A DNA stretch of 64,000 nt from Bacteroidota bacterium (GCA_947449315.1 CANFRC010000009.1:71157-135156); one strand, 5' to 3'; positions 3,491 to 64,000 are shown, counted from the first letter of the stretch. The notes: generated by a model from the letters alone, not told the origin. A program made the numbers and translations.

Positions 3491-3535
3491 AAAATATAAC
3501 CGCAAATTCTTTTTTGAAATTACGGTTATTAATGA

Positions 3536-4360: not shown

Positions 4361-4422
4361 TTACTAAGTTAACTAGGAATACCGGAATTAAAAAATTATC
4401 CCCAATCAACTCTTTTCCTAAA

Positions 4423-4989: not shown

Positions 4990-5150
4990 ACCTCGTCATA
5001 CCATCTCATATTAAATAAAATCTCTTGCATCAACTTCTTTTCCTCCCCGCTCATTTATGAATGGTCACCTTGTTGGTGTTCGCTATTATTTACCGATTCA
5101 TTTTAGCATGAAATAGCATTATTCCTCAAAAATAATCTCCCTATTTTCCT

Positions 5151-5158
5151 TATATTTG
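5151..5158 (+). promoter_or_regulatory. Bacteroidota-type -7 promoter element TAnnTTTG (TATATTTG) upstream of pruA
   Basis: Exact TAnnTTTG match about 45 nt upstream of the preferred ATG at 5204. No clear -33 TTTG element. Confidence 0.3.
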
Positions 5159-5203
5159 CAACTCAATTTAAATTCAACATTTACAATTTATAACTCTCTT
5201 ATT

Positions 5204-6844: not shown

Positions 6845-6863
6845 TATTTCACATACTGATAAA

Positions 6864-6898
6864 AAAACGTTCCGACAGAAGCGGGACGTTTTTTTTAT
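6864..6898 (+). terminator. Rho-independent terminator after pruA
   Basis: Hairpin aacgttccg-acagaag-cgggacgtt followed by a T8 run. Confidence 0.5.
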
Positions 6899-6947
6899 TT
6901 ACTATTTGAGTATTTATAGTATATTAGTTTAATCAATTATATACCAA

Positions 6948-7373
6948 ATGAAAAACAGAATCTATCTAATAATTACCTGCTTCAGTATCTTATACTTTTC
7001 TGAAAATACTTTCGCACAGGAAAAAGCAAAAACGGAAATCACTTCGGTAATACAAAATGCCCAAACTGTTGAATTGACTATTGAATCAACTACTCCATTC
7101 TATTTTGGAGGAAATGTTCATATTCTTCATGTCGGAAATAATGATTTTAAAATGTATAAACAAACAAAAAATAATGGCAAAGGACAGCTAACCTATTTGA
7201 TCCCGATCTCTGATTGGAATACTCTGACAAATGGAGCTGATGTTTGGGTGACGTATGGAAATCTTTTTAAAACAAGTCCAGATCAAAATATTGATATTAA
7301 AACCCTTTGTGAAAAAGCACCTCAAAAATGCTGGTATCTGGGCAAATTCAATGCAGATCTATTGAAAAAATAA
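6948..7373 (+). CDS. small secreted hypothetical protein (signal peptide)
   Basis: 141 aa. N-terminal hydrophobic signal MKNRIYLIITCFSILYFSENTFAQ. Confidence 0.45.
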   Translation: MKNRIYLIITCFSILYFSENTFAQEKAKTEITSVIQNAQTVELTIESTTPFYFGGNVHILHVGNNDFKMYKQTKNNGKGQLTYLIPISDWNTLTNGADVWVTYGNLFKTSPDQNIDIKTLCEKAPQKCWYLGKFNADLLKK

Positions 7374-7397
7374 TTTTAATTCGATAATGATATTACA

Positions 7398-9398: not shown

Positions 9399-9507
9399 AA
9401 ACATTGATCATCAGTCTATACTATTCATAAAATATATCCTATCTTAAAAGTGGTGATACATTCCAATGGTATGAGTATTTTTATCCTGTGAAGGAAATGA
9501 TCGTTAA

Positions 9508-11517
9508 CTACTTCCCAACTATCACAAATTCTGTTCTTCTGTTTTTTGCCCTGCCTGCTTCTGTAGCGTTATCAGCAATTGGTTTGGAGGCGCCAAAACC
9601 TTTAAAATCAACCAATCGTTTTTCATCTATCCCTTGAGCAAGCAATAGATTTCTAACACTAAATGCCCTGTCGGTGGATAGAGCAAGATTTGATTTTACA
9701 TCTCCAACATTATCCGTATGTCCGTGCACTTCAATTTTAATCGTAGGATTTTTCTTTAGAAATTCGGCAAATTCTTCTATCACAATTGTAGAACTTGGAT
9801 CCAGATCTGCTGAATTTGTTTTGTAATAAATATTATTAAGAGCATATGTTTTACCAACTTTAATTGTATCAACAATCATATTAACCTTTGCAGGCTTGGC
9901 ATTTACAATCGAATCCTTTTTTATCAATTCAGAACTGAAAGAGTAATTGTCCTTTTTTACTGTAATAATAAGATCGTTTTTAGTTTTCTGATTTACAACA
10001 ACTGTATAATCACCTGTTAAAGTATCAACCATTGCTTTGGTGACTTTTTTTGTAACTGCATCTTTCACTTCTACTGTAAAACCTTTCGGTTCACCATGAC
10101 CATTGTCTTCAATTTTCCCTTTAAAAAATGCTACTTCATCAGGGCGAGCTTCCTTGTAGAGATCGAATGAATAAATATCATATTTTCCAACAGATTTCCC
10201 TTTTGTTCTGGCTGGTTCGTTTGAAGCAAAATATCCAAGGTGTCCATCAGTACTTACAAAGAAACCAAGATCATCACCTGTCGTATTAATTGGAACTCCA
10301 ATATTTTTCGGTTCAGCCCATTTACCATCCTCGCCTTTTTTTGAAAAGAAAATATCAAAGCCTCCCACTCCAGGTTGCCCATCAGAAGAAAAATAAAGTG
10401 TTTGAAAATCGGAGTGAATGAAAGGTGATTTTTCATCTCCACTTGTATTGATTGTTGGACCTAAATTTTCTGGAGTACACCAAACACCGTTATCACCCCG
10501 AACAGAGTTGTAAAGATCTACGCCTCCGCGACCACCTTTTCTGTCGCTTGCAAAATAAAGTGTCTTACCATCTGAGGCAATACTAGGCTGTGAATCCCAA
10601 TAAACAGGATCATTGATACCTTCTACCTTTTTTGCTTCTGTCCATTCTCCATTAACTTTATCCGAATAGTAGATGTCGCAATTAATGGTTGAACCGCCCT
10701 CATCTGTACATTTAGTAAAAAATAAATGTTTGTTATCAATAGACATGGTTGCACCGCCTTCACTTCCGTTTTTGTTAAATGGATACGACATTCGTTGCCC
10801 TTTATTAAATTGCCCGGTAATTTTGCTTCGGATCGAATAACTGAATAATTCCAATTCTTTGTCGCTCTGGTATACCACATTATTGTCAATAAAAGGCTGC
10901 TTTCTGGTAAACAACATCATTTCATCATCAGAGGATATGATTGGAAGATATTCGTCTTTTTCTGTACAAATACCAGGCACTGGATAAGGATCAAAAGGAA
11001 CAGGTTTCGCTAATTCAATATACAATTTACAATAGCGAATCATTTGTTTTGATTGTGATAAAAATGCATCGTAATCTTTGTTAAATTTCTTATCATCGTC
11101 ATCTTTAAAATCTAAGTATTGCTTTAAATATCTTATAGACTCTGCCCAATTTTCATCTTCGTATGCAATGAAACCAAGATAATAATAAGGATCAGAATGA
11201 TATTTAGGACATATCTCAATCACTTTTTTAAAGTATGGTTCCACAGGTTTGTATTTTGCATCGGCAAGGCTAAGTGTTTTAATTCGCTCTTCAGCAAAGG
11301 CGAAATTAGCATCCACGTAATCAGGTTCCAAAGCAATGGCTTTCGTAAGAAAAGCGAGGCGCTCTTCTTTTTTATATTTTTTATCTGTTCCCTGGGTATA
11401 AAGCTTAATTGCTTTTTTATTGTCTATCTCCTGACATTTTGTTTCTTCCTGAGCCAGCAAGGGAATCGCAAATGAACTAAGAATAAAAAATGATACTGCT
11501 TTTAAATAAAATTTCAT
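9508..11517 (-). CDS. OmpA-family outer-membrane lipoprotein with TPR repeats and TolB-like beta-propeller repeats
   Basis: C-terminal OmpA domain (VHGHTDNVGDVKSNLALSTDRAFSVRNLL…NRRTEFVIVGK), repeated PD40-like units (LYFSSDRKGG…, LYFSSDGQPGVGGFDIF), N-terminal signal and TPR-like region. Confidence 0.7.
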   Translation of the reverse strand: MKFYLKAVSFFILSSFAIPLLAQEETKCQEIDNKKAIKLYTQGTDKKYKKEERLAFLTKAIALEPDYVDANFAFAEERIKTLSLADAKYKPVEPYFKKVIEICPKYHSDPYYYLGFIAYEDENWAESIRYLKQYLDFKDDDDKKFNKDYDAFLSQSKQMIRYCKLYIELAKPVPFDPYPVPGICTEKDEYLPIISSDDEMMLFTRKQPFIDNNVVYQSDKELELFSYSIRSKITGQFNKGQRMSYPFNKNGSEGGATMSIDNKHLFFTKCTDEGGSTINCDIYYSDKVNGEWTEAKKVEGINDPVYWDSQPSIASDGKTLYFASDRKGGRGGVDLYNSVRGDNGVWCTPENLGPTINTSGDEKSPFIHSDFQTLYFSSDGQPGVGGFDIFFSKKGEDGKWAEPKNIGVPINTTGDDLGFFVSTDGHLGYFASNEPARTKGKSVGKYDIYSFDLYKEARPDEVAFFKGKIEDNGHGEPKGFTVEVKDAVTKKVTKAMVDTLTGDYTVVVNQKTKNDLIITVKKDNYSFSSELIKKDSIVNAKPAKVNMIVDTIKVGKTYALNNIYYKTNSADLDPSSTIVIEEFAEFLKKNPTIKIEVHGHTDNVGDVKSNLALSTDRAFSVRNLLLAQGIDEKRLVDFKGFGASKPIADNATEAGRAKNRRTEFVIVGK

Positions 11518-49523: not shown

Positions 49524-49613
49524 TGGAGAGATGCCTGAGTGGCCGAAAGGAACAGTTTGCTAAACTGTCGTACTGGGAAACCGGTACCGAGGGTTCGAAT
49601 CCCTCTCTCTCCG
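49524..49613 (+). tRNA. tRNA-Ser (anticodon GCT), long variable arm
   Basis: GGAGAGA…TCTCTCC acceptor stem, D-loop AGTGGCCGAA, anticodon stem-loop ACAGT-TTGCTAA-ACTGT, long extra arm, T-arm GGTTCGAATCC. Confidence 0.85.
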
Positions 49614-49628
49614 CTGAAAAATTACAAA

Positions 49629-49668
49629 AGATCTGCTCTGATTATCAGGGCAGATCTTTTTGTTTTTA
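49629..49668 (+). terminator. hairpin plus T-run after tRNA-Ser
   Basis: agatctgctctga-ttat-cagggcagatct followed by tttttgttttt. Confidence 0.4.
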
Positions 49669-49890
49669 GCAATGACTAACCCTTGAATTTATCTCACTAA
49701 TTTTTATTTTGGGGATCAATAGCAATAAATACCTGTGCATTGCTTTCATTGGTATTGTTTGCGATCAAACGTGAATGAGATAAATTATGGTAAATAGTCA
49801 ATAGGAATTATAAACTTTTTTATTAAAATCTTTGCAGAATAAAAAATAATGGTACATTTGCATCCGCATTTATAGTTCTTTATAGTAGTT

Positions 49891-49964
49891 CGGGGCGTAG
49901 CGTAGTTGGTTATCGCGCCTGGTTTGGGACCAGGAGGTCGCAAGTTCGAGTCTTGCCGCCCCGA
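49891..49964 (+). tRNA. tRNA-Pro (anticodon TGG)
   Basis: CGGGGCG…CGCCCCG acceptor stem, anticodon stem-loop CCTGG-TTTGGGA-CCAGG, T-arm GGTCGCAAGTTCGAGTCTTGCC. Confidence 0.85.
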
Positions 49965-50048
49965 CAAAACAAGTGGTTAATGGTTATTTGTTATATTTTA
50001 CTTATAACATATTATCGTTAACCATTTTTGTTAGTAGCCTTTTAAAAT

Positions 50049-50122
50049 GATCCCATAGCTCAGCTGGATAGAGCAACGGTTTTCTAAACCGTAGGCCTTT
50101 GGTTCGAATCCAAATGGGATCA
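50049..50122 (+). tRNA. tRNA-Arg (anticodon TCT)
   Basis: GATCCCA…TGGGATC acceptor stem, D-arm TAGCTCAGCTGGATAGAGCA, anticodon loop TTTCTAA, T-arm GGTTCGAATCC. Confidence 0.85.
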
Positions 50123-50180
50123 CTAAAGCATACTGATAATCAATTAGTTAGCTGTTTGTATTGACAATATTATTGACAAA

Positions 50181-50651: not shown

Positions 50652-50832
50652 TATAAAGAAGCTTTGCGTCATACCAATGTTGCTTTGATAAAAGTGTTGG
50701 AAGGCTTGAACAATAATGTGACTGGCGATTTCTTAGCGATGGATATCCGCACCTCGCTTCATCATCTGGGTGAGAACACCGGAGAAATTTCGAGTGACGA
50801 TCTATTAGCGATTTTTTTTAGTCGATTTTGTA
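50652..50832 (+). pseudogene. mnmE: 3'-terminal fragment (last ~60 codons) of tRNA-modification GTPase gene mnmE (trmE/thdF), truncated by upstream in-frame stops
   Basis: In-frame translation [63 protein letters not shown] matches the conserved MnmE C-terminus, including the terminal FCIGK. Stops (TGA, TAG) lie immediately 5'. No G-domain is present. Confidence 0.7.
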
Positions 50833-51035
50833 TCGGGAAGTAATTTTTTTGTTTTTGGAGCAGTCAATTTTTGTAAAAAAAAATAAGGCTGTCATGAGTT
50901 TGAACTGAAAAAAGCAGCAGTAAACGGGGGGCAACATGTTTATTTTATTGAAAAAGAGTTTCCAATTAAAAAATCATTGGGATGGCGGGAAAATATATGA
51001 AACATAAAAAATGAAAAAATCATAAAATGTTTACA

Positions 51036-51072: not shown

Positions 51073-52227
51073 GTGAATATATCTAAAGATTTAATTTATC
51101 TTGATAATAATTCGACAACAAAAGTTGATGATAGGGTTATTGATGCAATGATTCCAATCATGACAGAATGCTATGGAAATCCCTCTAGCTCTCACCCATT
51201 TGGAAAAGAAATTCATCAATTAATTATTGAAGCCAGAAAAAACGTTTCAAATCTAATTAGTTGCGAACCTAAAGAAATAATATTCACATCCGGAGCAACT
51301 GAAGCTATTAACTTAGCTTTAAAAGGAATTGCCCAATCCTCTCATTTCAATAGAAAAAAAATAGTAACTTTCTCAACGGAACACAAAGCCGTTTTAGATA
51401 CTTGTAAAATCCTTGAAAACCAAGGATTTGAAATTGTAATCCTTCCTGTAAATAATGATGGTACCGTTGACATAGCTTTATTATCCAATGTTGTCGATCA
51501 AGAAACACTTCTTGTTGCTGCAATGTTCGTAAATAACGAAACTGGAGTTATTCATGATATTAAAAAAATGGCTGAAATTACCCATAATATGGGAGCAATT
51601 TTCTTTTGTGATGGCACACAGGCTGTAGGAAAAATTAAAGTAGACATAAATGAACTCGATGTTGATATGCTATGCTTTTCAGGTCACAAGTTTCACGGAC
51701 CAAAAGGAATTGGAGCATTATATGTAAACAATTCTATAAAAAATAAAATTCAAGCACAACAAACTGGTGGTGGACAGGAATCCGGATTAAGAAGTGGAAC
51801 TTCCAATACTGGAGGAATTGTTGGTTTAGGTGAAGCATGCAAAATAGCTGTAATAGAAATAAAAGAAACTGAAGTCAAAGTCGCAAAGCTAAGAGACCAA
51901 TTAGAGTCTGAACTTTTACAAATTCCAGGGACATTTATTAATGGTAATATAAAAAATCGAATTTATAACACTACTAACATTTGCTTCCCTAAAAATGACG
52001 CAAATGTAATAATAGGAAGATTAAAGAAAATTTCTGTAAGTAATGGTTCTGCATGTACATCTTTAATTGTTGAACCATCACATGTTTTATCTGCGATGGG
52101 TTTAGATAATGATTTGGCCTTTGCCTCCCTTCGCTTCTCATTAAGTAGATACAACAATATAAATGAAGTAAAAAAAGTTGTTAAAGAATTAAGTAATATT
52201 CTGATTCCAAATTTAATTATAAATTAA
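51073..52227 (+). CDS. cysteine desulfurase (class V aminotransferase, IscS/NifS/DndA/SspA-like); GTG start
   Basis: LIYLDNNSTTKVDDRV (IscS N-terminus), PLP-lysine motif FSGHKFHGPKGIGALYV, catalytic Cys loop SNGSACTS. 384 aa. Confidence 0.85.
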   Translation: MNISKDLIYLDNNSTTKVDDRVIDAMIPIMTECYGNPSSSHPFGKEIHQLIIEARKNVSNLISCEPKEIIFTSGATEAINLALKGIAQSSHFNRKKIVTFSTEHKAVLDTCKILENQGFEIVILPVNNDGTVDIALLSNVVDQETLLVAAMFVNNETGVIHDIKKMAEITHNMGAIFFCDGTQAVGKIKVDINELDVDMLCFSGHKFHGPKGIGALYVNNSIKNKIQAQQTGGGQESGLRSGTSNTGGIVGLGEACKIAVIEIKETEVKVAKLRDQLESELLQIPGTFINGNIKNRIYNTTNICFPKNDANVIIGRLKKISVSNGSACTSLIVEPSHVLSAMGLDNDLAFASLRFSLSRYNNINEVKKVVKELSNILIPNLIIN

Positions 52228-52231: not shown

Positions 52232-52447
52232 ATGGAACAGACTCTAGCAAATACCACAAATTGGCTAAAAAGTAAAGAGGTTGAAAGTAAATTGAAAGTT
52301 TATAATAGTCATTTAATGCATTTAAGACTTGAAAGTAAATTAAGTTATACCAAAAACGGGAATTCATTTTTCTACAAAAAAAGTGATGTTAAGAAAATTA
52401 AAGCTATTTTTAAAAACTCAATAATTTCAAAGAGTAGAAATAAATAG
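52232..52447 (+). CDS. small DNA-binding protein, HTH_17 (excisionase/AlpA/MerR-like) candidate
   Basis: 71 aa. …LKSKEVESKLKVYNSHLMHLRLESKLSYTKNGNSFFYKKSDVKKI fits the helix-turn-helix … wing … F..DV pattern of HTH_17. It starts 4 nt after the desulfurase stop. Confidence 0.35.
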   Translation: MEQTLANTTNWLKSKEVESKLKVYNSHLMHLRLESKLSYTKNGNSFFYKKSDVKKIKAIFKNSIISKSRNK

Positions 52448-52534
52448 AGAAAATGAATTATAAAATTGAGCCTCAAAAAAGGAAAGTTGATCTTTTTAAG
52501 GAGCTTAACAGAGTTTTAGAAGAAATTGAAAATT

Positions 52535-54115
52535 ATGATAAATGATATTAAAGAATTAATTTGTGATTTACCTGATGGAAAAAAAAGAAATTATTTAGGT
52601 CAACTTTTCGTACAGTCGCTGAGTAATTATTACTCCAATTTTGGAGTTGATGAAGAAATTGATTTAGATGAACTTCTTGTTAGAAACATCAAAGAAATTA
52701 TTATTGAGGATGAATTATTGAAAGACTTAAAATTATTCGTTTCAAAAAAATTAGAAGAACTTTTTAATCTAAATTCTAATGATATAAGTGAACTTAGAAT
52801 TAAAGATCTTCGAGCAAAACTGATTTCACATTTTGAAATAAAATTTGAAATCGATCAAACAGCTGATAGAATATATGAGAATAATTTAATCTGTAAATTT
52901 CCACTTCATGATTTTCAAGATCGAATTAGGAGAAAAGTCATAAATTTAATTTTCGATAATCAGAAACGATTTTTGATTCATATGCCGACTGGTTCTGGTA
53001 AAACAAGAACCGCAGCAGAGGTTATTTTAGATTTTATTCGATTATCTTCAAGCAAATCCTTGTTAAATGATAAAATAAAAATTCTATGGATAGCGCAATC
53101 CAGCGAACTTTGTTATCAAGCTTATGAAACAGTAAAACTTATAATAGAAAATAAAGGAACTCAAAATATAAGTTTGGCAAATTATTATGGTAATCAAGAG
53201 TTGCCAAATGATATAGAAAACAAATCAGCTGTAATTTTCTGCGGTATTCAAAAATTACTTTTACATTATACAGATGATATTTGGAGAAATATAAAAAATA
53301 ATACTTATTTAGTTATCGTTGATGAAGCGCATAGATCGGTAGCAAATCAATGGGTACAAGCATTAGATTATTTTGTGTCAGATCAAAGCGTATATTTATT
53401 AGGATTAACTGCGACACCTGGACTGGGTACAGTTAATGAAGATAGAACATTTTTGCTATCTACTTATTACCAAAGTAATAAGATAACAATAACGGATTCA
53501 AATTATGAAGAAATACCAAATCCAATTAATGAGTTAGTAAAATTAAAATTTTTGGCTCAAATAAAACGAATTGATATTGATTCGAAAGTTGTTATTGAAA
53601 ATGGTGTAGACACCTCTGACGAAAATGAAATTAAATTTTCAAATAATACTTTAGATGAATTGACTGCGAATCAACAACGAAATGCTTCAATTATTAATAT
53701 AATAAAAGAAAATCATTTAAAGAAGAAAAAAATGCTGGTTTTCACTTGTGGGTTAGAGCATAATCGTATTTTAAAATCCATATTAACAGATTTGAATATA
53801 GTTTCAGAAACTATTGATCAAAGTACTACAAATAGAAATTCTATAATTGATAGATTTAAAGATAGCAATAGTGGTCTCGATATTTTACTAAATTTTGGCA
53901 TTTTAACTACTGGATTTGACGCTCCTAAAACCGATGTATGTATCATTGCTAGACCTATTTCTTCAATTGTAATGTATTCACAAATGGTTGGAAGAATATT
54001 GCGAGGGCCAAAAAATAATGGAAACGATGAAAATACACTCTACACTATAAAAGACAACCTTGGTCACGGTGACTATGATAATCTATTTAATTCATTTAAT
54101 AATTTTTATAAATAA
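52535..54115 (+). CDS. superfamily-2 DEAD/DEAH-type helicase (restriction Res-subunit-like) with ~130-aa N-terminal domain of unknown function. The ORF is open from TTG 52526.
   Basis: Motif I HMPTGSGKTRTAA, motif II LVIVDEAHRS, motif III LGLTATPG, motif VI YSQMVGRILRG. Confidence 0.8.
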   Translation: MINDIKELICDLPDGKKRNYLGQLFVQSLSNYYSNFGVDEEIDLDELLVRNIKEIIIEDELLKDLKLFVSKKLEELFNLNSNDISELRIKDLRAKLISHFEIKFEIDQTADRIYENNLICKFPLHDFQDRIRRKVINLIFDNQKRFLIHMPTGSGKTRTAAEVILDFIRLSSSKSLLNDKIKILWIAQSSELCYQAYETVKLIIENKGTQNISLANYYGNQELPNDIENKSAVIFCGIQKLLLHYTDDIWRNIKNNTYLVIVDEAHRSVANQWVQALDYFVSDQSVYLLGLTATPGLGTVNEDRTFLLSTYYQSNKITITDSNYEEIPNPINELVKLKFLAQIKRIDIDSKVVIENGVDTSDENEIKFSNNTLDELTANQQRNASIINIIKENHLKKKKMLVFTCGLEHNRILKSILTDLNIVSETIDQSTTNRNSIIDRFKDSNSGLDILLNFGILTTGFDAPKTDVCIIARPISSIVMYSQMVGRILRGPKNNGNDENTLYTIKDNLGHGDYDNLFNSFNNFYK

Positions 54116-54121
54116 TCAACT

Positions 54122-55918
54122 ATGAGTAATAAAAGACCACTAATGGGTACAGATAATATCCTTGGGTTACAAGATAACGGATATAAAAGTACTGTTTCTG
54201 CTATTTCTGAAATAATTGATAATAGTATTCAAGCACATGCAACAAATGTTGACATTGTTATTATTAGAAATACTACTCGAGAATCGGATGAAATTGACGA
54301 AATTATGATAATTGATGACGGAGATGGAATGGATCAAAATATTTTTGACAAGGCTCTTCAAATGAGCTCAGGAAGTAGATCAAAAGCAAAATCAGGCTTA
54401 GGTAAATATGGCCAAGGCTTACCTAATTCATCTATTTCTCAAACAAAAAGAGTCGAAGTTTATACCATGCAAAAGGGGAAAATACTTTATAATCATATTG
54501 ATTTAAATGAAATTTACGAAAGTCAACAACCCTATTTACCAGATACCGAAAAAAGAAATGAAATTGATATTCCTATTTTCAAATCTAAAAAATTAAAAGC
54601 ACCTGAAACTGGTACAATAGTAAGATGGGTTAATCCTAATAAAGTAAAACCTAAAACTGCTAGAACATTAGCAACACATATTGAACAAATAGCTGGTCGA
54701 ACATTCAGATATTTTATTAATGGCTTTAAAGACAATGATGGAAAGATTTATAAATGTAATATAAACATTTTAGTCTTTGATTTTAATGGTAAAAATTATG
54801 AACCTGATAATTTTATTACAAAGAAAAATATTCTACCATTTGACCCTATGTTTCTTATGCCAGCAACGCAAATGAATAAATTGTTTCCAGAGAGCAGTCA
54901 TCCAACTAGTAGTATATTTGATGAAAAAATCAAGAAAGAATTTAAAGTTATATACAATAATGAAAAAGTAAAAACAATTGTTGAAATTAAATTATCCTAT
55001 TGCAATAAAAAAGAACGTGATAGATATGGACGAAATGCCGGTGGTGAACCTTTTGGAAAAAAGTACTTGAATAGAAATTTGATTGGTACATCTGGATACA
55101 ATAATATTTCAATAATTCGCGCCGGAAGAGAAATTGATTACGGAAGTTTTGGTTTTATTTTAGATGCTTCTGAATCAACAAATAGATGGTGGTCTGCTGA
55201 AATTTTAGTTGAGCCAGTTATAGATTCTATTATTGGTATCGATAATAAAAAACAACAAGCTTCACAAATTCAATTTGTCGACAATCAGACATCTGAGGAT
55301 TATGACCATCATGAAATTATTCGATGGATTTCTACATTTCTTACGCAAAACATTAAAAGTGTTAAGACAATTATCGAATTGCAAAATGCGTCCTCTAATG
55401 GTACAACTGCTAAGGGGAAAGGAAAAGGACCAAAACTTCCTCCCGGGGGAGGAACTGAGCCAGGAAACTCAGGAAATCCAGGCGCTAATCCTGACGATGA
55501 TGAAATGAAAAAAGTTAAGAAGGAATTATTTGAATGGATAAAAGAAAGATACCCAAAACTGAAAGATGATGAAATATGGGAAATCGTAGATTACGCATTC
55601 AGTATAAAGGATTGTCATATTTTTATTAAATCAGATTTAGGAGATACACAGCTATACAGTTATAAGGTTTTTGGCACTAAAGTTTTGATAGAAATTAATT
55701 ATACTCATAGTTTTTATAAAAGATTTATTCAAGGGTTTGAAGAAGACCCAAGTCAAGAAAAATCATTACGTTCAATCAGATTATTGATAGGTGCCATGGT
55801 TAATGCAGAAATTGTGAATGGTACTGATGAAAAAGAAATACTTAAAGATAGACGGAATATTAAAAATAGGATGTCAGAATGTTTAGAGGATTATATCGAG
55901 GATTTATACGCAAGTTAA
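54122..55918 (+). CDS. GHKL-superfamily ATPase (HATPase_c; prokaryotic MORC / MutL-like) with long C-terminal extension
   Basis: Bergerat-fold boxes: N box EIIDNSIQAHA, G1 box IIDDGDGMD, G2 box GKYGQGL. 598 aa. It starts 7 nt after the helicase stop. Confidence 0.8.
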   Translation: MSNKRPLMGTDNILGLQDNGYKSTVSAISEIIDNSIQAHATNVDIVIIRNTTRESDEIDEIMIIDDGDGMDQNIFDKALQMSSGSRSKAKSGLGKYGQGLPNSSISQTKRVEVYTMQKGKILYNHIDLNEIYESQQPYLPDTEKRNEIDIPIFKSKKLKAPETGTIVRWVNPNKVKPKTARTLATHIEQIAGRTFRYFINGFKDNDGKIYKCNINILVFDFNGKNYEPDNFITKKNILPFDPMFLMPATQMNKLFPESSHPTSSIFDEKIKKEFKVIYNNEKVKTIVEIKLSYCNKKERDRYGRNAGGEPFGKKYLNRNLIGTSGYNNISIIRAGREIDYGSFGFILDASESTNRWWSAEILVEPVIDSIIGIDNKKQQASQIQFVDNQTSEDYDHHEIIRWISTFLTQNIKSVKTIIELQNASSNGTTAKGKGKGPKLPPGGGTEPGNSGNPGANPDDDEMKKVKKELFEWIKERYPKLKDDEIWEIVDYAFSIKDCHIFIKSDLGDTQLYSYKVFGTKVLIEINYTHSFYKRFIQGFEEDPSQEKSLRSIRLLIGAMVNAEIVNGTDEKEILKDRRNIKNRMSECLEDYIEDLYAS

Positions 55919-56220
55919 ATTAACTAATTAATATGATTTTCAAATCTGATTTGGCTTTTGATATTAAAAAAAAGTAAGAGCAGTAATTATTTAACTAACT
56001 TAAAAATCTTGCAGTAGAATATTATAATTTTATTTTGTAAAAATTATTTGGATTAATTCACGAATAAAAAATGTAATACTTATTAGATAACTGCTTTAAT
56101 TTATTAAAAACTGTATTTTCAGCAATTTCATCTTTTATTTCCTTTAGGAAACACTAGAGATAAATCATTTCTCACTATATATAGTGTAAAGTTATTATTA
56201 TTCACTAATGTTTTACAATT

Positions 56221-57183
56221 ATGCTATATAGAAGTGGAGAAAATTTAGAACATGGCGCAATTAATTTCGTAAATAATTGCGAAACAGTAACATTATATTC
56301 AGCATATCTTAAATTGGATGAATTAAAGAAAATAAATGAACATAAAAAAATAAAGCAAATTATTGTCAGATGGGAAATTGAAGATCTTTGTAGAAAAATT
56401 TCAGATATCGAACTATTTCTATACTGCAAAGAAAATAGTATTGTATTATACCGAAATACTCGCATTCACTTAAAAGCCTTTTGGGATAATAAATCAGATG
56501 TGTTTTTTGGTTCTGCAAATGTTACCAACAAAGGCCTTGGCGAAAACGGGAACTTCAATTTTGAATTAAATGGCGCATTAAAGGGAATAAGTTTTGCTGA
56601 CCAAACTTATTTCAATAAATTAATATTAGACAGCGAATATGTTACAGACGACCTTTATAATAAGTTATTGGACTTAATTGAAAGTGTTGTTTTGCCAACA
56701 TTTGATTTCCCAAAACTTCCAACTCCTCCACCAACAGTAGAATATTTTTTAATTAATCAGCTTCCAATGACAACGAGTCCTGAATTACTTTTTGAAATCT
56801 ATAGTGGACAGATGAAAAATGAAATAGAAATGAATTGTGCAGCACATGACTTAGAGTTGTATCGCATACCAAAAGGACTAACTAAAACTGTTTTTTTTGA
56901 CCAATTAAAACAAACATTCAACAATCATCCTTTTATATTGGAATTTAAAGTTACAATTAAAAATTCTGTCGATGAATTAAACCGAACTGATAGGAATGGA
57001 AGTATGACTTTTGGATCTGTTAAACGATGGTTTCAAGATAAAACTACTACTGTTCCCACACCCCGCTCATTTGAATTGAATGATTATGTAAATATATTAT
57101 ACGATTGGATCTGCCATTTCGATAATTGTTACAGCCATTCCATTCCAGGAGGGTACTCTCAGGTAATTAAGTATATTTGCTAA
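56221..57183 (+). CDS. phospholipase D-family nuclease, single HKD motif (Nuc/BfiI-like)
   Basis: HLKAFWDNKSDVFFGSANVTNKG matches HxK(x)3-4D(x)6GSxN. Only one copy is present, implying dimeric use as in Nuc. The C-terminal ~150 aa are unassigned. Confidence 0.65.
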   Translation: MLYRSGENLEHGAINFVNNCETVTLYSAYLKLDELKKINEHKKIKQIIVRWEIEDLCRKISDIELFLYCKENSIVLYRNTRIHLKAFWDNKSDVFFGSANVTNKGLGENGNFNFELNGALKGISFADQTYFNKLILDSEYVTDDLYNKLLDLIESVVLPTFDFPKLPTPPPTVEYFLINQLPMTTSPELLFEIYSGQMKNEIEMNCAAHDLELYRIPKGLTKTVFFDQLKQTFNNHPFILEFKVTIKNSVDELNRTDRNGSMTFGSVKRWFQDKTTTVPTPRSFELNDYVNILYDWICHFDNCYSHSIPGGYSQVIKYIC

Positions 57184-57262: not shown

Positions 57263-58837
57263 ATGAAAATTGAAGCTTTAAAAAATCAAATTGTTTCAGG
57301 AGGTAGAACATATCCGATATTCATTGCTTTTATAGAAGCGGAGTTAGTATTAAAATACTCTGTTGTTCCAAATTTTAGTAATGATGATCATGAAGAGGCA
57401 ATTGCGGTGAATATAAAAAGTAAACCTGTAAAAAAATGGCAGCGCCCTCTAATTCAATCGAAAGTTGATGAACTGATTAAAACGTTTAATAATACTGGGG
57501 AATTCATGCCAAATCCTGTTCTGTTATCAGAAAATCCACTGCGAACAAGTAAATCACAAGAAAAAATTAAGGCCTACCCTAAAATTATCGGAGGGCAAAC
57601 TAGTTCTGTTTGGGAAATAAGTTTACCTGAAGAAAAAGAGGTCTTGTGGATTATTGACGGACAGCACAGAATTACAGGTTTAGGAGATGTTGATTGTAAA
57701 CAAAATTCAAATATTGTTCCGGTAGTGCTTTTATTAAACCCTGATACTGTTTTCTATACCCCCCCTGACTTTGCAAAAATATTTGCGCAAGTTTCAACGA
57801 CAGCTTCAGAATTAAGACCACTTCATAAAGAATGGTTGCAGTATTCTTTTGAACTGGCAAAATACGAAGGGAAGCAGTGGCAGGATTCAATGTCTACTGT
57901 GGTTGAGCTATGTGCCCACACAGAATTTATAGACCGAGGCACCACCTACCCTAATCCATATTGGGACAAAATTGTTTTTAACGATGCCAATTTAGAGAAT
58001 AATATGCGTCTAAATTGTCAAGTATTCGCAGAAATAATTCACTCAGAATATTATAATAGAAAACCAGAATACAATCATTTTGCTCCGACTGAACTAGCTG
58101 TTCTTGTTGAAAAAGCGTTCTTTCAGCTTCGTCACACAATACCAAATCCTGACCTTTCGGTGTTTTTTGGAAGCGAATCTACGATTCGTCACGTTGTTTC
58201 AATTAAGGCATATATCAGAGGCATATTAACCTATATCCTAAAATATTGCGACCCTCAAGATTCAAGCAAAACACCTGATTTGAATGCATGGAAAAATGTA
58301 TATGAAACTTTATATTTTAACAAAACTGATTTTAATTGGGCTTTACATTCTATGACTGGTGAAGCGTGGTATTCAAAGTCGGAAATTTTGGCGAATGTCG
58401 TATTTAAAGAAGCTTTTAGATCTTTGACAATCCCTGATGGTGCCGTAGATTTAACTCATTGTATTTGTCTTGGAAATAATCAATTTATAGAACTGGAATT
58501 AACAAACAATGTAGGAGTTTCTACCACAAAAAAAATCACGAGTAACACAACAGTTATAAATGACCCGGGGAATATTTCAAATATAAAAATTGTAAACAAA
58601 TCATTTAATTGCGAATTAATCAGTATCGTTGACCAAAAAACTACCCATAATTATCCTCAAAAGTTCAATATGGATTATGCGCGAAAAAATAAAGGAAAAG
58701 GAATAGATGTTCCTTTTACAAAGCCTGCAACAAAAAGTAAACCCGCATACGATACAACAAAAAACTTCAATCTTGAAGTCAAAATAACACGCTATGGCGG
58801 GGGGACTGATACAATGGTAATTAAATTTCACATTTAA
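57263..58837 (+). CDS. DGQHR-domain protein (DndB-like family), 524 aa
   Basis: Diagnostic motif VLWIIDGQHRITGL. Upstream QRPLIQSKVDEL is the DndB-type region. It is ~150 aa longer than canonical DndB, with an extra C-terminal region. Confidence 0.8.
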   Translation: MKIEALKNQIVSGGRTYPIFIAFIEAELVLKYSVVPNFSNDDHEEAIAVNIKSKPVKKWQRPLIQSKVDELIKTFNNTGEFMPNPVLLSENPLRTSKSQEKIKAYPKIIGGQTSSVWEISLPEEKEVLWIIDGQHRITGLGDVDCKQNSNIVPVVLLLNPDTVFYTPPDFAKIFAQVSTTASELRPLHKEWLQYSFELAKYEGKQWQDSMSTVVELCAHTEFIDRGTTYPNPYWDKIVFNDANLENNMRLNCQVFAEIIHSEYYNRKPEYNHFAPTELAVLVEKAFFQLRHTIPNPDLSVFFGSESTIRHVVSIKAYIRGILTYILKYCDPQDSSKTPDLNAWKNVYETLYFNKTDFNWALHSMTGEAWYSKSEILANVVFKEAFRSLTIPDGAVDLTHCICLGNNQFIELELTNNVGVSTTKKITSNTTVINDPGNISNIKIVNKSFNCELISIVDQKTTHNYPQKFNMDYARKNKGKGIDVPFTKPATKSKPAYDTTKNFNLEVKITRYGGGTDTMVIKFHI

Positions 58838-58838: not shown

Positions 58839-59381
58839 ATGATTTTTACTGAATTAAATAATTTCAGAATCGAAATTTCTAAAAAATACGTAAATCATCT
58901 TTCTGTGTCATTTATTGTTGGATGGGAAAAATGTAGAAAATCATTAGAAACCGAAAAAGATACATATGAATTAATTTTAAAAAAATTAGCACTACTGCAT
59001 CCCGAACACTACTACTTAATTTTAAAAACTGAAACCAGTAGGATTAATAGCAAAATTGAACTAATTCAAGGAAATAGATCCTTTCCGCAGATTGATGACA
59101 CCGAAAAATGTCAATCTGAAGAACTTTGGGGGTATATTTGTCCTTTTACAATAGAAAACAAGGTTCAAGATCATGAATTTCCATACTCCTTAGGAGGCCC
59201 TACAAATAAGGCATTTAATAGAAGAATACTTTGCAGATGGCATAATATGATAAAAGCTAACGACATCCATAATTATCCCTGGGAAAAACTATTTAATCAA
59301 TATGAATATTATATAAAAACCAACAGGGTGCACTGGGTTGATGAACAATTAAATAAAATCATAAAAGAATTCAATTTGTAA
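58839..59381 (+). CDS. HNH endonuclease
   Basis: CPFTIENKVQDHEFPYSLGGPTNKAFNRRILCRWHNMIK: Cys…D-H…N…C..H-N pattern of the HNH beta-beta-alpha-Me finger. The start is 2 nt after the DGQHR gene stop, so the two are translationally coupled. Confidence 0.6.
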   Translation: MIFTELNNFRIEISKKYVNHLSVSFIVGWEKCRKSLETEKDTYELILKKLALLHPEHYYLILKTETSRINSKIELIQGNRSFPQIDDTEKCQSEELWGYICPFTIENKVQDHEFPYSLGGPTNKAFNRRILCRWHNMIKANDIHNYPWEKLFNQYEYYIKTNRVHWVDEQLNKIIKEFNL

Positions 59382-59651
59382 ATAAGTAGAAATTAAAAAA
59401 TTCTACAAAGAACTCAACAATTTTTCTAGTTCATTTTTTAACTCTTTTTCCTTTTTTCTTATTGAAACATCTATTTCAATAGGGAAAGTATGGCTCATGT
59501 ACTTTTCAATGTCTCCAATTAAGCTACCTTGAATACCATTTCTCATCTTTTTTAAAAATTGAATTCAATCTTCTAAATTATTAAAAATAATCGAAGAGGA
59601 ATGTCTTACAATCTCAAAAAAAATTTAAAAACAGGATCAAAATCGGATTTT

Positions 59652-59908
59652 TCATCCACTAAAATATTTTTTTCCAAGCGCAGCAGCAAAGCCAACTTCA
59701 AGAGTTAAACCATAACCTGAAGGATTATCCTTTTGCAATCCCAAAGAGTATATTCAATTGGAGAAAGTAATTCGTGCTCTCTTGGATTAAAAAAAACAAC
59801 ATTACTTTTACCGACATTTTTAATAACTAGAGATTGCCAATCTATGATATTCATCCCACCTGAAAGAAATATTTTAGAGTCCATCATTTTGTGTATTAAA
59901 TAAAACAA
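59652..59908 (-). pseudogene. nucleoside 2-deoxyribosyltransferase-like small gene interrupted by a +1 frameshift near 59740-59755
   Basis: Frame A (59908-59705) encodes MMDSKIFLSGGMNIIDWQ…NVVFFNPREHE (N-terminal KI(Y/F)L(A/S)G(P/G) motif). Frame B (59753-59652) encodes …SGYGLTLEVGFAAALGKKYFSG*, the D/G..(T)..E.G.A.A.GK C-terminal signature of PF05014-like proteins. The frames overlap and differ by one nucleotide. Confidence 0.35.
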
Positions 59909-60996
59909 CTAGCACAACCCGCATCATCGTCTTCTAGTATATCAATTAGAAGAGATGATTTTTTCTGTGCATTCTTTTCAGTTTTTTTTATGTAATCTTC
60001 TTTTATCTGTTGAATTCTTTCAGGCTTAATTAAATCACCTAAGGCCTCCTCACTCCATGAGTATCCAGTTTTTTCATATTCCAAAGCCTTGTTAAAAAGA
60101 TCAGGGTGCTGTTCGTAAAGCCAAACCCACTCTATTTTCTGCTGGTAAAAACAAAAATAGCATCCTGAGCGGCTTCGTGCATACTCCCCCATTTTACCGT
60201 TTACTTCAAATTTAATCTTTTTATAATACTCAGGCACTCCAACTCCACTTTCTTCTAGTATTTTAAAAATGTCACTTTTAATTAAGATATCCTCATTATC
60301 CAGCAAAGCAAAATCATTTTCCATTGCAAGAGGGTACTCTGTAGTTTTCAGAAATTGAAATACTAAATGATTAAAACCTTTGATGTCGGTATCTAAAATA
60401 GCATTCAATTTATGTTTTAAGGTAAATGAAGTGTCTATTTTCTTAGAAATTAATGCTTCAAACTTTTCTTTATTTCTGCCCCAGTATACATTTGAAAACA
60501 TCGGCATAACTTTATCTAAATTTTGATTGGATAAAACCTTAGCAATAACATCTTCACTCCAAATGTTTTTTCGAAAAGGGAAAATCGATTGAATATTTTT
60601 TTTGGTAGAAATATAACCTTCTCTTTCCTCATCACCTCTGATGCCAACGTAAGAAACTACAGGATCATTTCCAACGTATTTCTCAAAGGGGTCAAGCTTT
60701 AAGGTCTTTGTGCACCATCTAGCAGTTGCAGAAGGCAAATAACCACCATGCAACGTCAAAAAATGATCAAATGGATCAGCTTCCGAAGTCTCTCTTGTTG
60801 CCAAAAGTAAATTAATTTTGATTCCTAAATAAACCTCCAAATTTTTTATCAGTTGGTAAGTTTCGTCAAGCTCCTTTCCAGTATCACATGAATAAAACTC
60901 CAAATCAATGCTTGGATATTTTGTTTTCATATAAATAGCTAAAGCAGCACTATCTTTTCCACCTGAAATCCCTAAAACGTGTCTTGTCTTTTTCAT
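59896..60996 (-). CDS. PAPS-reductase-family PP-loop ATP pyrophosphatase (DndC/SspD/BrxP-like), 366 aa
   Basis: N-terminal PP-loop HVLGISGGKDSAA. C-terminal Cys cluster (RSGCYFCFYQ … DAGCASCFI) as in DndC-type proteins. The start ATG overlaps the upstream gene's stop (TA[A]TG). Confidence 0.8.
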   Translation of the reverse strand: MKKTRHVLGISGGKDSAALAIYMKTKYPSIDLEFYSCDTGKELDETYQLIKNLEVYLGIKINLLLATRETSEADPFDHFLTLHGGYLPSATARWCTKTLKLDPFEKYVGNDPVVSYVGIRGDEEREGYISTKKNIQSIFPFRKNIWSEDVIAKVLSNQNLDKVMPMFSNVYWGRNKEKFEALISKKIDTSFTLKHKLNAILDTDIKGFNHLVFQFLKTTEYPLAMENDFALLDNEDILIKSDIFKILEESGVGVPEYYKKIKFEVNGKMGEYARSRSGCYFCFYQQKIEWVWLYEQHPDLFNKALEYEKTGYSWSEEALGDLIKPERIQQIKEDYIKKTEKNAQKKSSLLIDILEDDDAGCASCFI

Positions 60997-63900
60997 TATT
61001 TCAATAAATCCTTCAATAGATTAACCAATGCAGCAATATTCAATGTTTTATCTGAAGAAAGTTTCTTTTTTAATTGTTCCTTAATTTCATTTATCTCCAA
61101 CTCTTTCTTCTTAGGTATTTTTACGATTTTAGGTGCAATTCCACTAAAAAACGAGTCAATTTTAACGGCTATAACTTCTTCCTTATCTTCATCAATATCA
61201 GTTTTAGAAATATTAGTCAACCCATCAAGTTGTATGATACAGTTTTTAAATTTTTCATACAAACTAATCTCGTCCTCATCTTTAAAGGTATCTAACGTTT
61301 TACCAACAGCAATTTGAGCAAGTGAGTTCAACCAAATCTTCTTATCGTCAATTTTCGAATTTATTCGTTGAACAAATACTTTCTGATCAGCTAATAGCAA
61401 ATGTTGCTTTAACTTTTTAAATCTCTGCTGCAGCTTTTCTTTGTAATCTTCAAAATCTAATTTATCATATACAATTTCATTACAAATAAATTCTTCAAAA
61501 CGCTCAACTAATAAATCATAACATGATCTTAACTCACGAATTGTGCTCTGCAAAGTATTTGTGTATTTCTGTAACTTCTTTTTATCCTTTTGTAGTTCTA
61601 AAACCGTAAAGTCTAAAGCTGCAGGAAATGCATTAAAAAATGTATCTTCTGGGTCTTTAGAGGAAGCTATAGAAGTCCTGATTTTAATAGCTTCTTTTGA
61701 AAGACGATTGGTTTGTTTTGAATATTCAGGCAATTGCTTGTAAAAAGTAAGAAATGGCTTTATTGTTTCAATAAATGACTTATTATCAATCTTTACCCCA
61801 GTAGCTTGATTCAAAAAAGTTCTATAACTATTGAATATATCTAATTTGACACCTTCAATATCGAATGCTTTTATTTTAAATTTCGCAGGTAACTTAGAAA
61901 CTAATTCTAAATTTTCATCAGAAAGATTAGGAACGTACCCTGTTTCTCCAAAAAGCGCAAAATCGTCACGTTTAATAAACAGGAAAGTTGGAATCCAAAA
62001 ATCAATTAAGCCTTGTTTGAGCTTAAATGGCCTTTTGCTTAATATATCGACAAGCTCATCAATAGACCTAGGTTCAATTTTCGTACTTGCAATAAACTTT
62101 TCTGATGTGTTCCAAAGATCCAAAAATGAAGAAGAATTTTCAACACTTGGTACATCAGTACTTCCATCTCTAATTGGAGAGATACCATTTTCTTTCATTA
62201 GAGAAAGAAAAATAGTTTTCTCTGGCGGGAATTTATCGTTTTCAAAACCAAGATTCTCCTTATCCCAATTATTTGCTAAAGCTTTAAAATAATTTTTCTT
62301 AGCCGAATGAATAGATGGAGAAATCCTATGTTTATTCATCAATTCATTAACAAATTCTGGAGTAGAACTATAAACCGAATCGCAAATTTTAGATAAAAAT
62401 TTATTAAATAATTTTTTGTCTGTTATTGTTTTCACTTCCCCGTCCTTCCAAAACCATCTAACGTCAAGATTGTTACTGAATAGATTAGCAACAATGTATT
62501 CATTTAATATTTTTTTCTGATGTGAAAGAATACTCTCTAACTCACGTTTAGCAACTTTATCATCGACATTTTCTTCAATTACTTTTTGAATTTTTTCAAT
62601 TTCGAAAAGCAAATCTTTAATTTCATTTGCATTTCTGTAGAAACCATAAATAACAGCATCTTGTTGATTAATAGCTATTTTTTCGAGTTCATTTAATTTA
62701 AGCTTTGAATTAAATATTAGATTTATATAACCATCTATTTCACCCGTAGGAATTTTTTCTATGGGATACTCTGAAATAACAAATTCGAAAAATCGAGGAG
62801 TACCCTTTTTATAGGAATGCTGCTTTGCCAATATTGGAGCAAAAGAAAAATATTTATTTAACAAAGTAGTTATATCAGTTACCTCAGATACTTTATTTGC
62901 AGCTTCAATAAGAGCTGTTTGTATATCCAAATCTGTACCTTCAAACAAAATATATCTTTGTGAATGGGCTCTATATAGTATAATTTTTTTCTGCTCAAGC
63001 TTTTGAATTAGTTCTCTACCGTTCTTTATTCCACAAGAAGTGATTAAATATTCATCTAGAAAAACAAGGTCTAATTTTGACCCACTAGCCGAAAAAATGT
63101 TAAGCAACCCTATTGTCTTAATAATTTTTGAATACTCAACTATAGAATCATCAAATGCTCTTTCAACTTCTTCAATAGCTGTTCTTATAGAAGACCATGC
63201 AGAAAAATCAGAATTATATTTTGAAGTTAAGTACGAATAAAAATTAAAAATTAAATAATCGTATACACAAGATAAATTATAAAAAGGATTGTCTTTTTTA
63301 TTAAACTTAGCTAAACCAGTATTATCTGTAGATTCTAGAAAAGAAAACAATGACCTTTCATTTTGCCCATATCTTTGAAGTGATAGGGTCAGTACATTAG
63401 CAGAAAGTATATCCAGAGGATATAATTTACTAGCAATTTGTTGTAGAAAATCCTTGTTAAAACTAAATGCTTTTGTATTTATATTAAGCTTTAATGACCT
63501 TTCTATAATAGCCTTTCCAGCTATTGCTTCAACCGTTTCACCAATATGTTCAGAAGCCAAGAACAGCAATTGTTCCACTGGCTCATTAAAAGTAATTTCC
63601 TTAAATCGTCCCTTAACTTTCGTCCACTCTTGCTTCTGTTGTCCTTGAAGTGAAAACGCATACGATTCAAAACTTTGATGAACGGTAGTAATAAAAACGA
63701 TATTATACTTTGGGTCATTGCAAAATTCAGCCAATTGTTGAATAAAATACAATTCATCTTCTGGACTATTTTTTGAAGCATACTCTAAAAATTTGCCAAA
63801 TTCATCAATAAGAAGGAAAAGGATTTTATTTCCCTTTCCCAATGAGTGATATCGATTGAAGATTTCAGAAAAAATATTTTCTTGTTTATTTTTGTTTGAT

Positions 63901-64000
63901 GTTATCTTAAGAAGATCCGCAAAAGTTTGTATAACACTGTTATATTCCCCAATCACCTTAAGGAAATCAACTTTAGGATTATCTATAAAATTAACATTGA
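60996..64000 (-). CDS. large (>1000 aa) ATPase-like protein, N-terminus lies beyond the window end. BrxC/PglY (DUF499) or SspC-like is a candidate family.
   Basis: The minus-strand frame is open from 60996 to the window edge with no stop; the listed GTG at 63956 is not the true start. A Walker-B-like GNKILFLLIDEFGKFLEY lies near the visible N-terminus. The remainder is a long, mostly alpha-helical K/E/L/I-rich body. No P-loop is visible in the window; it is presumably upstream. Confidence 0.55.
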   Translation of the reverse strand, partial: NVNFIDNPKVDFLKVIGEYNSVIQTFADLLKITSNKNKQENIFSEIFNRYHSLGKGNKILFLLIDEFGKFLEYASKNSPEDELYFIQQLAEFCNDPKYNIVFITTVHQSFESYAFSLQGQQKQEWTKVKGRFKEITFNEPVEQLLFLASEHIGETVEAIAGKAIIERSLKLNINTKAFSFNKDFLQQIASKLYPLDILSANVLTLSLQRYGQNERSLFSFLESTDNTGLAKFNKKDNPFYNLSCVYDYLIFNFYSYLTSKYNSDFSAWSSIRTAIEEVERAFDDSIVEYSKIIKTIGLLNIFSASGSKLDLVFLDEYLITSCGIKNGRELIQKLEQKKIILYRAHSQRYILFEGTDLDIQTALIEAANKVSEVTDITTLLNKYFSFAPILAKQHSYKKGTPRFFEFVISEYPIEKIPTGEIDGYINLIFNSKLKLNELEKIAINQQDAVIYGFYRNANEIKDLLFEIEKIQKVIEENVDDKVAKRELESILSHQKKILNEYIVANLFSNNLDVRWFWKDGEVKTITDKKLFNKFLSKICDSVYSSTPEFVNELMNKHRISPSIHSAKKNYFKALANNWDKENLGFENDKFPPEKTIFLSLMKENGISPIRDGSTDVPSVENSSSFLDLWNTSEKFIASTKIEPRSIDELVDILSKRPFKLKQGLIDFWIPTFLFIKRDDFALFGETGYVPNLSDENLELVSKLPAKFKIKAFDIEGVKLDIFNSYRTFLNQATGVKIDNKSFIETIKPFLTFYKQLPEYSKQTNRLSKEAIKIRTSIASSKDPEDTFFNAFPAALDFTVLELQKDKKKLQKYTNTLQSTIRELRSCYDLLVERFEEFICNEIVYDKLDFEDYKEKLQQRFKKLKQHLLLADQKVFVQRINSKIDDKKIWLNSLAQIAVGKTLDTFKDEDEISLYEKFKNCIIQLDGLTNISKTDIDEDKEEVIAVKIDSFFSGIAPKIVKIPKKKELEINEIKEQLKKKLSSDKTLNIAALVNLLKDLLK

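Follow-up and report, generated by a model that had tools for sequence, protein, structure and literature searches.

A MORC-like ATPase, an SF2 helicase and a PLD nuclease as a candidate restriction partner for Ssp-type phosphorothioate modification

Introduction

About 84% of the sspBCD gene clusters associated with single-strand phosphorothioate (PT) modification of DNA lack a known restriction partner, and the authors of the survey reporting this value expected more partners to exist (PMC8092258). Partnerless Ssp and many Dnd clusters have fed a debate as to whether PT serves mainly as a defence mark or has other roles. Here we describe a 64,000-nt stretch of DNA from a Bacteroidota bacterium (GCA_947449315.1, CANFRC010000009.1:71157-135156; hereafter the window, whose numbering is used throughout), in which genes for an SF2 helicase, a MORC-like GHKL ATPase and a phospholipase D (PLD) nuclease lie within an ssp cluster. 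We consider it probable that this trio forms a single ATP-dependent restriction module, which would use the PT marks laid by SspABCD to discriminate self from non-self.

Two earlier proposals bear directly on this locus. Neighbourhoods that combine a MORC or paraMORC ATPase with an SF2 helicase and a nuclease, including HKD nucleases, were predicted to be restriction-modification (R-M) systems (Iyer, Abhiman & Aravind 2008, PMC2292703). This precedent had been invoked in a reading of the window made from its sequence alone (the sequence-only reading), and the publication confirms it. In addition, PbeA of Dnd systems is a fusion of an HKD nuclease with an SF2 helicase, for which the same logic was proposed by Rakesh et al. 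(PMC10853773).

Comparison with described systems

Protein domains were assigned by scans with PADLOC, Pfam and NCBIfam, and the cluster scans took in the proteins from 51 kb to the window end. By these scans, no named defence system covers all three trio proteins. Partial matches only, far below the family cut-offs, were obtained to PbeA, REase_I, MzaB, ZacB/ZacC, DrmC and dnd_restrict_1, and the public annotations of the trio genes are generic. Likewise, the openly searchable literature, including a review of 2026 and the PT and BREX surveys published in 2024-2026, holds no description of a helicase-GHKL-PLD set together with Ssp (papers without such a description include PMC8092258, PMC10853773, PMC12839542, PMC12914056, PMC12904381 and PMC2292703).

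PbeABCD resembles the trio in placing an HKD nuclease and an SF2 helicase on a PT modification module, and the best PADLOC match of the helicase is PbeA (7e-20), although only the helicase part is covered (profile positions 248-433 of 672). The two arrangements differ in that the nuclease and motor of the trio are separate proteins, a GHKL ATPase is a constant third partner, and the modification genes are of the Ssp rather than the Dnd type. Moreover, the CxC-ABC ATPase (PbeC), the DndE-like PbeD and the small PbeB were not found around the trio. The helicase and PLD proteins are best read as resembling a split PbeA. In Psychromonas marina, a Dnd/Pbe cluster encodes a full-length homologue of the GHKL protein (26% identity, 620 aa, E 1.5e-46) next to an HKD-helicase of the PbeA type, and this placement suggests that one GHKL ATPase family might serve both PT systems.

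The Psychromonas cluster (locus L094, GCA_030161115.1, positions 961-11042) encodes, in order, TerB, the PbeA-like HKD-SF2 helicase, a small open reading frame (ORF), a CxC-type ABC ATPase, a dnd-associated-4 protein, the GHKL homologue, a protein annotated as carrying a ScoMcrA sulfur-binding domain (a match that is absent at E<=0.01) and a pair of DGQHR and HNH proteins. DndE-like genes are present there too.

The systems predicted in 2008 resemble the trio in overall composition, with a GHKL and S5 protein encoded beside a Rad25-like SF2 helicase and a nuclease, and with HKD nucleases among those noted (PMC2292703). A neighbourhood of this kind, with SF2 helicase and nuclease, is seen here in 36 of 37 metagenome loci and again in genomes and on plasmids. 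Unlike those systems, in which self DNA would be marked by DNA methylases, the trio is accompanied by genes for SspABCD phosphorothioation, which take the place of the methylase, and no methylase was found among the cluster proteins. The trio is best read as a putative PT-coupled version of the MORC, SF2 helicase and nuclease systems predicted at that time.

The described Ssp partners share the modification module with the trio and are likewise encoded as restriction cassettes beside sspBCD, sometimes two together (PMC8092258). SspE consists of DUF262, a ParB-like NTPase domain, fused to a DUF1524/HNH-like nuclease, and no SspE or GmrSD_N match was found in the trio proteins; DUF262 proteins do occur alongside the trio at three related loci (L011, L088 and L093). 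Among the SspFGH proteins, defined in V. anguillarum, SspF carries a Walker A motif and SspH is likened to FtsK and similar DNA translocases (PMC8092258), whereas the trio domains differ. It is this published description that sets the trio apart from SspFGH, and the trio proteins gave no PADLOC matches to SspE, SspF, SspG or SspH. Similarly, there were no matches to DndF/G/H or DptF/G/H in PADLOC or NCBIfam. The scans thus agree with the sequence-only reading, which held that the domains differ from those of DndFGH, SspE and PbeABCD.

Likenesses are also found in systems that employ some of the same components. SauUSI, a type IV enzyme with a PLD nuclease, an SF2 helicase and a target-recognition domain, is a single polypeptide without a GHKL partner and attacks modified cytosine. 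MZA/MADS and DISARM each include a GHKL ATPase or a PLD nuclease within a multi-gene, modification-linked defence. The match of the GHKL protein to MzaB (1.1e-10) covers the ATP-binding core only, with 52 bits against a cut-off of 850, and the other signature genes are absent. For DISARM, the DrmC match (1.8e-4) lies on the HKD motif only, and DrmA, DrmB (DUF1998) and the methylase were not found.

Domains of the three proteins

The three ORFs are co-directional, and the domain identities assigned in the sequence-only reading hold for each of them, as do the catalytic residues on alignment. The helicase gene (52535-54115, plus strand) starts at an ATG at 52535, which public gene callers choose over an alternative TTG at 52526. 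Its product matches ResIII (1.7e-28), DEAD (1.1e-15) and Helicase_C (1.2e-9) in Pfam; RadD, EcoAI-R and HsdR, all below threshold, in NCBIfam, together with a weak match to TIGR04095, 'DNA phosphorothioation system restriction enzyme'; and REase_I, also weakly, in PADLOC. The closest sequences in the PDB are RadD (1.8e-16) and Rad25/XPB (8e-8). Across 53 homologues, both close and distant, conservation is 90% or higher in motifs Q, I (MPTGsGKT), II (DEAH), III (GLtATP) and VI (sQ..GR..RG), and the N-terminal residues 1-126, searched alone in Pfam, gave no credible match. The protein is predicted to be a Rad25/XPB/RadD-like motor that resembles the R subunits of type I and type III enzymes and lacks a nuclease domain of its own.

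The GHKL gene (54122-55918, plus strand) follows after 6 nt (54116-54121), a spacer previously given as 7 nt. Its product matches HATPase_c_3 (7.4e-24). The N-terminal ATP-binding domain is of the kind seen in MORC and paraMORC proteins, and its N-box, G1 and G2 motifs are conserved in 54 homologues, with residues E30, N34, D65xGxG69 and G92-G99 invariant. An S5-fold transducer domain follows the GHKL domain. The structure model of the protein is closest to MORC3, SMCHD1, MORC2 and MutL, and a profile built from 40 homologues matches only MORC2 in the PDB (8.7e-6). Comparison with Pfam and with known structures gave no recognisable relatives of the C-terminal helical/beta domain (residues ~450-598), which is specific to the family. 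We label the protein only as MORC-like and assign it to no specific paraMORC family.

The PLD gene (56221-57183, plus strand) encodes a protein with a single HKD domain (HxK...N/GSxN, residues ~1-155) and a C-terminal winged-helix DNA-binding module (residues ~180-320). The Pfam match to PLD is by itself below threshold; the protein shows both the PLD fold and the superfamily motif HxK(x)4D(x)6GSxN, with Asn replacing Asp. Residues H83, K85, G97, S98, A99 and N100 do not vary among 25 homologues (51-85% identity). In fold, the PLD domain most resembles the SauUSI nuclease, part of an ATP-dependent restriction enzyme, as well as Nuc and BfiI. The C-terminus is a winged helix-turn-helix (wHTH), BrxA-like module that gave no credible match when searched alone in Pfam. 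Its assignment as a ScoMcrA-type sulfur-binding domain was considered and rejected (hhalign probability 0.1% against the Psychromonas protein listed with that domain).

Proposed mechanism

These components suggest the following scheme. SspA, SspD, SspC and SspB, the last presumably encoded just outside the window, would lay sequence-specific, single-strand PT marks on host DNA. The Rad25/RadD-like SF2 motor would translocate DNA, as is the case for type I and type III enzymes, PbeA and SauUSI. The HKD nuclease would contact DNA via its C-terminal winged-helix module and would dimerise to form one active site, like Nuc and BfiI. The MORC/MutL-like GHKL and S5 protein could act as an ATP-operated, dimerising clamp that licenses the motor and nuclease or couples one to the other, in the way that MutL does for MutH and UvrD. 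DNA without the PT pattern, such as that of a phage or plasmid, would then be nicked or cut, and PT-marked host DNA would be spared. What the sequences show is the identity of the domains, intact catalytic motifs and a tight linkage of the trio to sspBCD that is conserved across phyla; that the proteins form a complex, act against phages and depend on PT in the direction described is inferred. We favour a protective role for PT, of the kind that it has for SspFGH and DndFGH, over the activating role that it has for SspE, because the architecture is that of a motor plus a nuclease.

In the opposite arrangement, PT marks in host DNA would switch the module on through the wHTH module or the GHKL protein, the activated module would then nick incoming DNA, and a cell without PT would take no harm from the trio. 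This is how SspE, the Ssp partner studied in most detail, acts (PMC8092258), and the wHTH/BrxA-like module on the PLD protein would offer a site at which a mark might be read. Also in keeping with this scheme, the gene after that of the Psychromonas GHKL homologue encodes a protein to which precomputed Pfam annotation assigns a ScoMcrA-type sulfur-binding domain. On rescanning, however, that match is absent at E<=0.01, and the PLD protein's C-terminal domain is unlike the Psychromonas protein. Furthermore, the layout of motor and nuclease is that of enzymes that cut unmarked DNA (type I and type III enzymes, PbeA and SauUSI). Activation by PT is, in our judgement, unlikely.

Conservation of the trio and linkage to ssp genes

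The proposal that the trio works with PT marks, rather than merely residing near the genes that make them, draws on its distribution. A metagenome scan anchored on the PLD gene, independent of the search anchored on the GHKL gene, returned 74 loci. Helicase and GHKL genes are present in 36 of the 37 loci that have at least 4.5 kb upstream, and sspC/D in all 23 whose two flanks each reach 5 kb. The PLD-anchored genome loci L010, L011 and L012 each carry sspA, helicase, GHKL, PLD, sspD, sspC and sspB. The GHKL-anchored search recovered more than 120 full-length homologues, none informatively named, and every locus with enough flank shows the helicase-GHKL pair beside sspD-sspC-sspB (two Bacteroidota assemblies, Ignatzschineria, Maribellus, and metagenome-assembled genomes of Flavobacteriales, Cyclobacteriaceae and Saprospirales). 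A scan of a genome collection with GHKL patterns found 6 species representatives, an undercount, since the patterns fit the close subfamily only.

The association also holds over considerable divergence. By identity, the helicase/GHKL pairs divide into a close class (50-75%) and a distant one (25-35%), and the genes occur in three orders: helicase-GHKL-PLD (H-G-P), G-H-P and P-x-H-G. An exhaustive profile search yielded 1331 PLD-family clusters at 50% identity, 708 of them at E<=1e-10. Two PLD-family members that had escaped the initial search as too distant (E 1e-36 to 1e-49) both lie with helicase, GHKL and ssp genes. The combination of trio and ssp genes spans Flavobacteriia, Cytophagia, Saprospirales, Maribellus, the Gammaproteobacterium Ignatzschineria and the Alphaproteobacterium Roseobacter litoralis; the Ignatzschineria PLD protein is a remote homologue that is divergently encoded (hhalign probability 92%, E 6e-7). 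The whole set is carried, under generic annotations, on two complete plasmids, pROLI83 of Roseobacter litoralis (NZ_CP143425.1, ~67.4-80 kb) and a plasmid of Hymenobacter sp. GOD-10R (NZ_CP141190.1). As judged by comparative genomics, the trio is a conserved unit tied to PT genes; with identities, gene orders, phyla and kinds of replicon so varied, chance or mere island co-residence is very unlikely. The recurrence of the trio in other genomes, to which the sequence-only reading had looked as a check, is thus found in several phyla and on plasmids.

The same data bear on whether the trio could be an autonomous system, that is, a MORC-helicase-nuclease set of the R-M-like or abortive kind that shares an island with ssp and is uncoupled from it. 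Islands do gather defence genes, the locus is of low GC content and lies beside a tRNA cluster, and other defence genes (NERD-UvrD and DUF262) have been inserted into the same clusters. Against this stand the linkage counts of 23/23 and 36/37, the embedding of the trio between sspA and sspD, and the survival of the linkage through three gene orders, several phyla and plasmids. In addition, no methyltransferase or other self-marking gene was found beside the trio by PADLOC, Pfam or NCBIfam. We regard autonomy as highly improbable.

Equally doubtful is a role for the trio in aiding modification or repair, by unwinding or clamping DNA for single-strand PT insertion or by processing SspB nicks, even though MutL-like GHKL proteins and UvrD/RadD-type helicases work in repair and Ssp modification involves a nickase, a step known from the literature. 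In its canonical form, SspABCD needs no such genes to modify DNA (PMC8092258), and an invariant HKD nuclease on a DNA-binding module, with its likeness to SauUSI, BfiI and PbeA, argues for DNA cleavage as the output.

The sequence-only reading had offered the three genes as a candidate restriction arm of the PT island, and the present analysis supports that proposal, with gene neighbourhood and domain content pointing to restriction. Several observations nevertheless weigh against a PT-coupled restriction module. One PLD locus, L072, lacks helicase and GHKL genes upstream; its contig stops 82 nt beyond PLD, and the gene order there could be P-x-H-G, as seen in L088. The metagenome loci are not fully independent samples. 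In the PLD protein, residue 90 is a nearly invariant Asn where the classical HKD motif has Asp. The Tdp1-type motif, 'HKN', is similar, and nuclease chemistry is plausible despite N90, judging from the motif. The cluster in the window has also lost a NERD/UvrD gene that many of its relatives carry; should the lost gene be indispensable, the cluster here could be impaired. Finally, a DGQHR and HNH gene pair in the window could be the restriction element, or another one.

Implications for partnerless Ssp clusters

Somewhat more tentatively than we propose the module itself, we lean towards placing the trio beside SspE and SspFGH as a third family of Ssp restriction partners, as yet unnamed. In such a family, a MORC-type GHKL clamp would make the action of a Rad25-like motor and an HKD-wHTH nuclease depend on whether or not the DNA backbone bears a sulfur mark. 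If so, the trio would account for part of the ~84% of sspBCD clusters that appear to be orphans, especially in marine and freshwater Bacteroidota, and would provide the first MORC-family ATPase that acts downstream of an epigenetic mark on the DNA backbone. It is a concrete candidate partner, conserved, mobile and present in many environmental bacteria. Cultured sources include Roseobacter litoralis (pROLI83), Hymenobacter sp. GOD-10R (plasmid), Maribellus mangrovi, Ignatzschineria sp. F8392 and Aurantibacter aestuarii. The system would also offer a tractable bacterial MORC-like ATPase with a known input (a chemically defined DNA mark) and a known output (a nuclease), with a bearing on how eukaryotic MORCs read epigenetic state.

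A second candidate: the DGQHR and HNH pair

Downstream of the trio lies a gene for a DGQHR (ParB/DndB-like) protein of ~520 aa (57263-58837, plus strand), which matches TIGR03187 DGQHR (7.2e-12), DGQHR_dnd_1 (5e-8) and DpdB (1.6e-6), and faintly GmrSD_N (0.012) and DndB (0.028). Its partner is a small HNH-like nuclease (58839-59381, plus strand) that carries the motif DHEFPYSLGG...N...LCRWHN and gave no Pfam or PADLOC match. Homologues of this ~160-180-aa protein (40-52% identity) directly follow DGQHR homologues at L040, L094 and L095. DGQHR cassettes occupy positions 9126-11300 in L040, 9001-11042 in L094, 9001-11019 in L095 and 11701-13481 in L092. The pair thus occurs in Ssp clusters (L040) and in Dnd clusters (L094 and L095, from Psychromonas and Alteromonas), and it is not part of the conserved trio. 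In Roseobacter pROLI83, DGQHR is paired with a different small protein, which looks GIY-YIG-like by eye only, and DUF262/SspE-like genes fill the same position in other loci.

By its distribution, the DGQHR and HNH pair is a mobile, PT-associated cassette, and it may be a split analogue of SspE. In that event the cluster would carry two restriction arms, and the presence of SspE and SspFGH together, as two arms in one cluster, has been reported (PMC8092258).

A lost gene between the GHKL and PLD genes

The gap between the GHKL and PLD genes had been described as ~300 nt, AT-rich and possibly home to an internal promoter. Its length is 302 nt (55919-56220) and its GC content 0.195, as that description implies, and it holds more than a promoter region, since a gene relic lies inside it. 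On the minus strand, 56061-56168 is 70-75% identical over 107 nt (blastn) to sequence that lies upstream of PLD at 20 loci. By tblastn, this segment corresponds to the first ~36 codons, with one in-frame stop, of a gene for a NERD and UvrD-type SF1 helicase, with 56-58% identity (E 5e-8) to the N-termini of the proteins at L022 (552 aa) and L011 (543 aa). In ~25 related loci, an intact gene of this type (~545 aa), encoded on the opposite strand, separates GHKL from PLD; its product matches NERD (9.6e-8), UvrD_C and AAA_19, and RTasNERD-Hel in PADLOC (5e-57). One such locus, L040, also carries the DGQHR and HNH pair. Because the relic matches a gene that is intact at the same spot in relatives, we read the gap as the remnant of a deletion of a frequent fourth gene, the predicted NERD/UvrD helicase.

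In relatives without the NERD gene, PLD begins ~10-30 nt after GHKL, a spacing consistent with a single operon. In the window, the last ~50 nt of the gap would be the PLD promoter region. A scan of 50.1-60.1 kb for sigma-70 promoters and terminators gave 57 sites against 54 +/- 10 in shuffled sequence; the sigma-70 consensus is ill-suited to Bacteroidota and may not fit here. Within the gap, Rfam and tRNA scans found nothing, the only matches being three tRNAs at 49.5-50.1 kb, and a repeat search found only short, weak palindromes and no copy elsewhere in the window of the kind expected for a miniature inverted-repeat transposable element.

Genomic context of the ssp cluster

The suspicion that the trio sits in a PT-like modification island is borne out, and the type of island can now be specified. 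Upstream of the trio is sspA (51073-52227, plus strand), which encodes the cysteine desulfurase that serves as sulfur donor for PT modification (PADLOC SspA 5.1e-149, DndA 1.7e-147; Pfam Aminotran_5 4.9e-84). Downstream, on the minus strand, are sspD (59896-60996), for a PAPS-reductase-type ATP pyrophosphatase (PADLOC SspD 1.1e-89; PAPS_reduct 3.7e-8), and sspC (60996-64000), for an Orc/Cdc6-BrxC-like ATPase (PADLOC SspC E=0). The SspC match covers profile positions 77-1038 of 1039, and the frame is still open at base 64000. PADLOC thus finds SspA together with adjacent SspC and SspD on the minus strand, as in SspABCD. A DUF4007 sspB gene follows sspC in all relatives with enough flank; here sspC is cut by the end of the window, and sspB would be expected past position 64000. 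Because the trio lies between sspA and sspD-sspC, the predicted island is of the Ssp type (single-strand PT) rather than of the Dnd type or a generic one. A 514-nt non-coding stretch (59382-59895) separates the convergent HNH and sspD genes.

Directly 3' of sspA is a 71-aa ORF (52232-52447, plus strand) that is also called as a gene on an independent contig. It has tblastn homologues in L011 (54%), L012 and L071, following sspA in L011, and the Pfam scan gave no match. Read by eye, the product is possibly a small helix-turn-helix-type DNA-binding regulator; a 2026 BREX survey mentions small regulators beside the cysteine desulfurase of PT systems. In many distant-class loci, an extra protein of 400-730 aa without a Pfam match is encoded between sspA and the helicase (2562-4760 in L011, 5201-6430 in L012 and 3069-4583 in L022). 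This protein, which is missing from the window, has repeated 'DG-I/V-T..E...L.EKA' motifs and looks TerB-like by eye.

The GC content is 0.26-0.32 over 52-57 kb and 0.288 over 52535-57183, compared with 0.339 for the whole window, a drop in keeping with recent horizontal acquisition. Upstream of sspA lie a cluster of tRNA-Ser(GCT), tRNA-Pro(TGG) and tRNA-Arg(TCT) genes (49525-50123) and a 59-codon fragment of the mnmE C-terminus (50664-50843, plus strand), which matches no more of the MnmE helical domain than its final 52 positions (E 1.2e-9). Given the low GC content and these upstream features, the cluster looks like a horizontally acquired island, of which the tRNA cluster and the mnmE fragment probably represent the left boundary or a target-site duplication.

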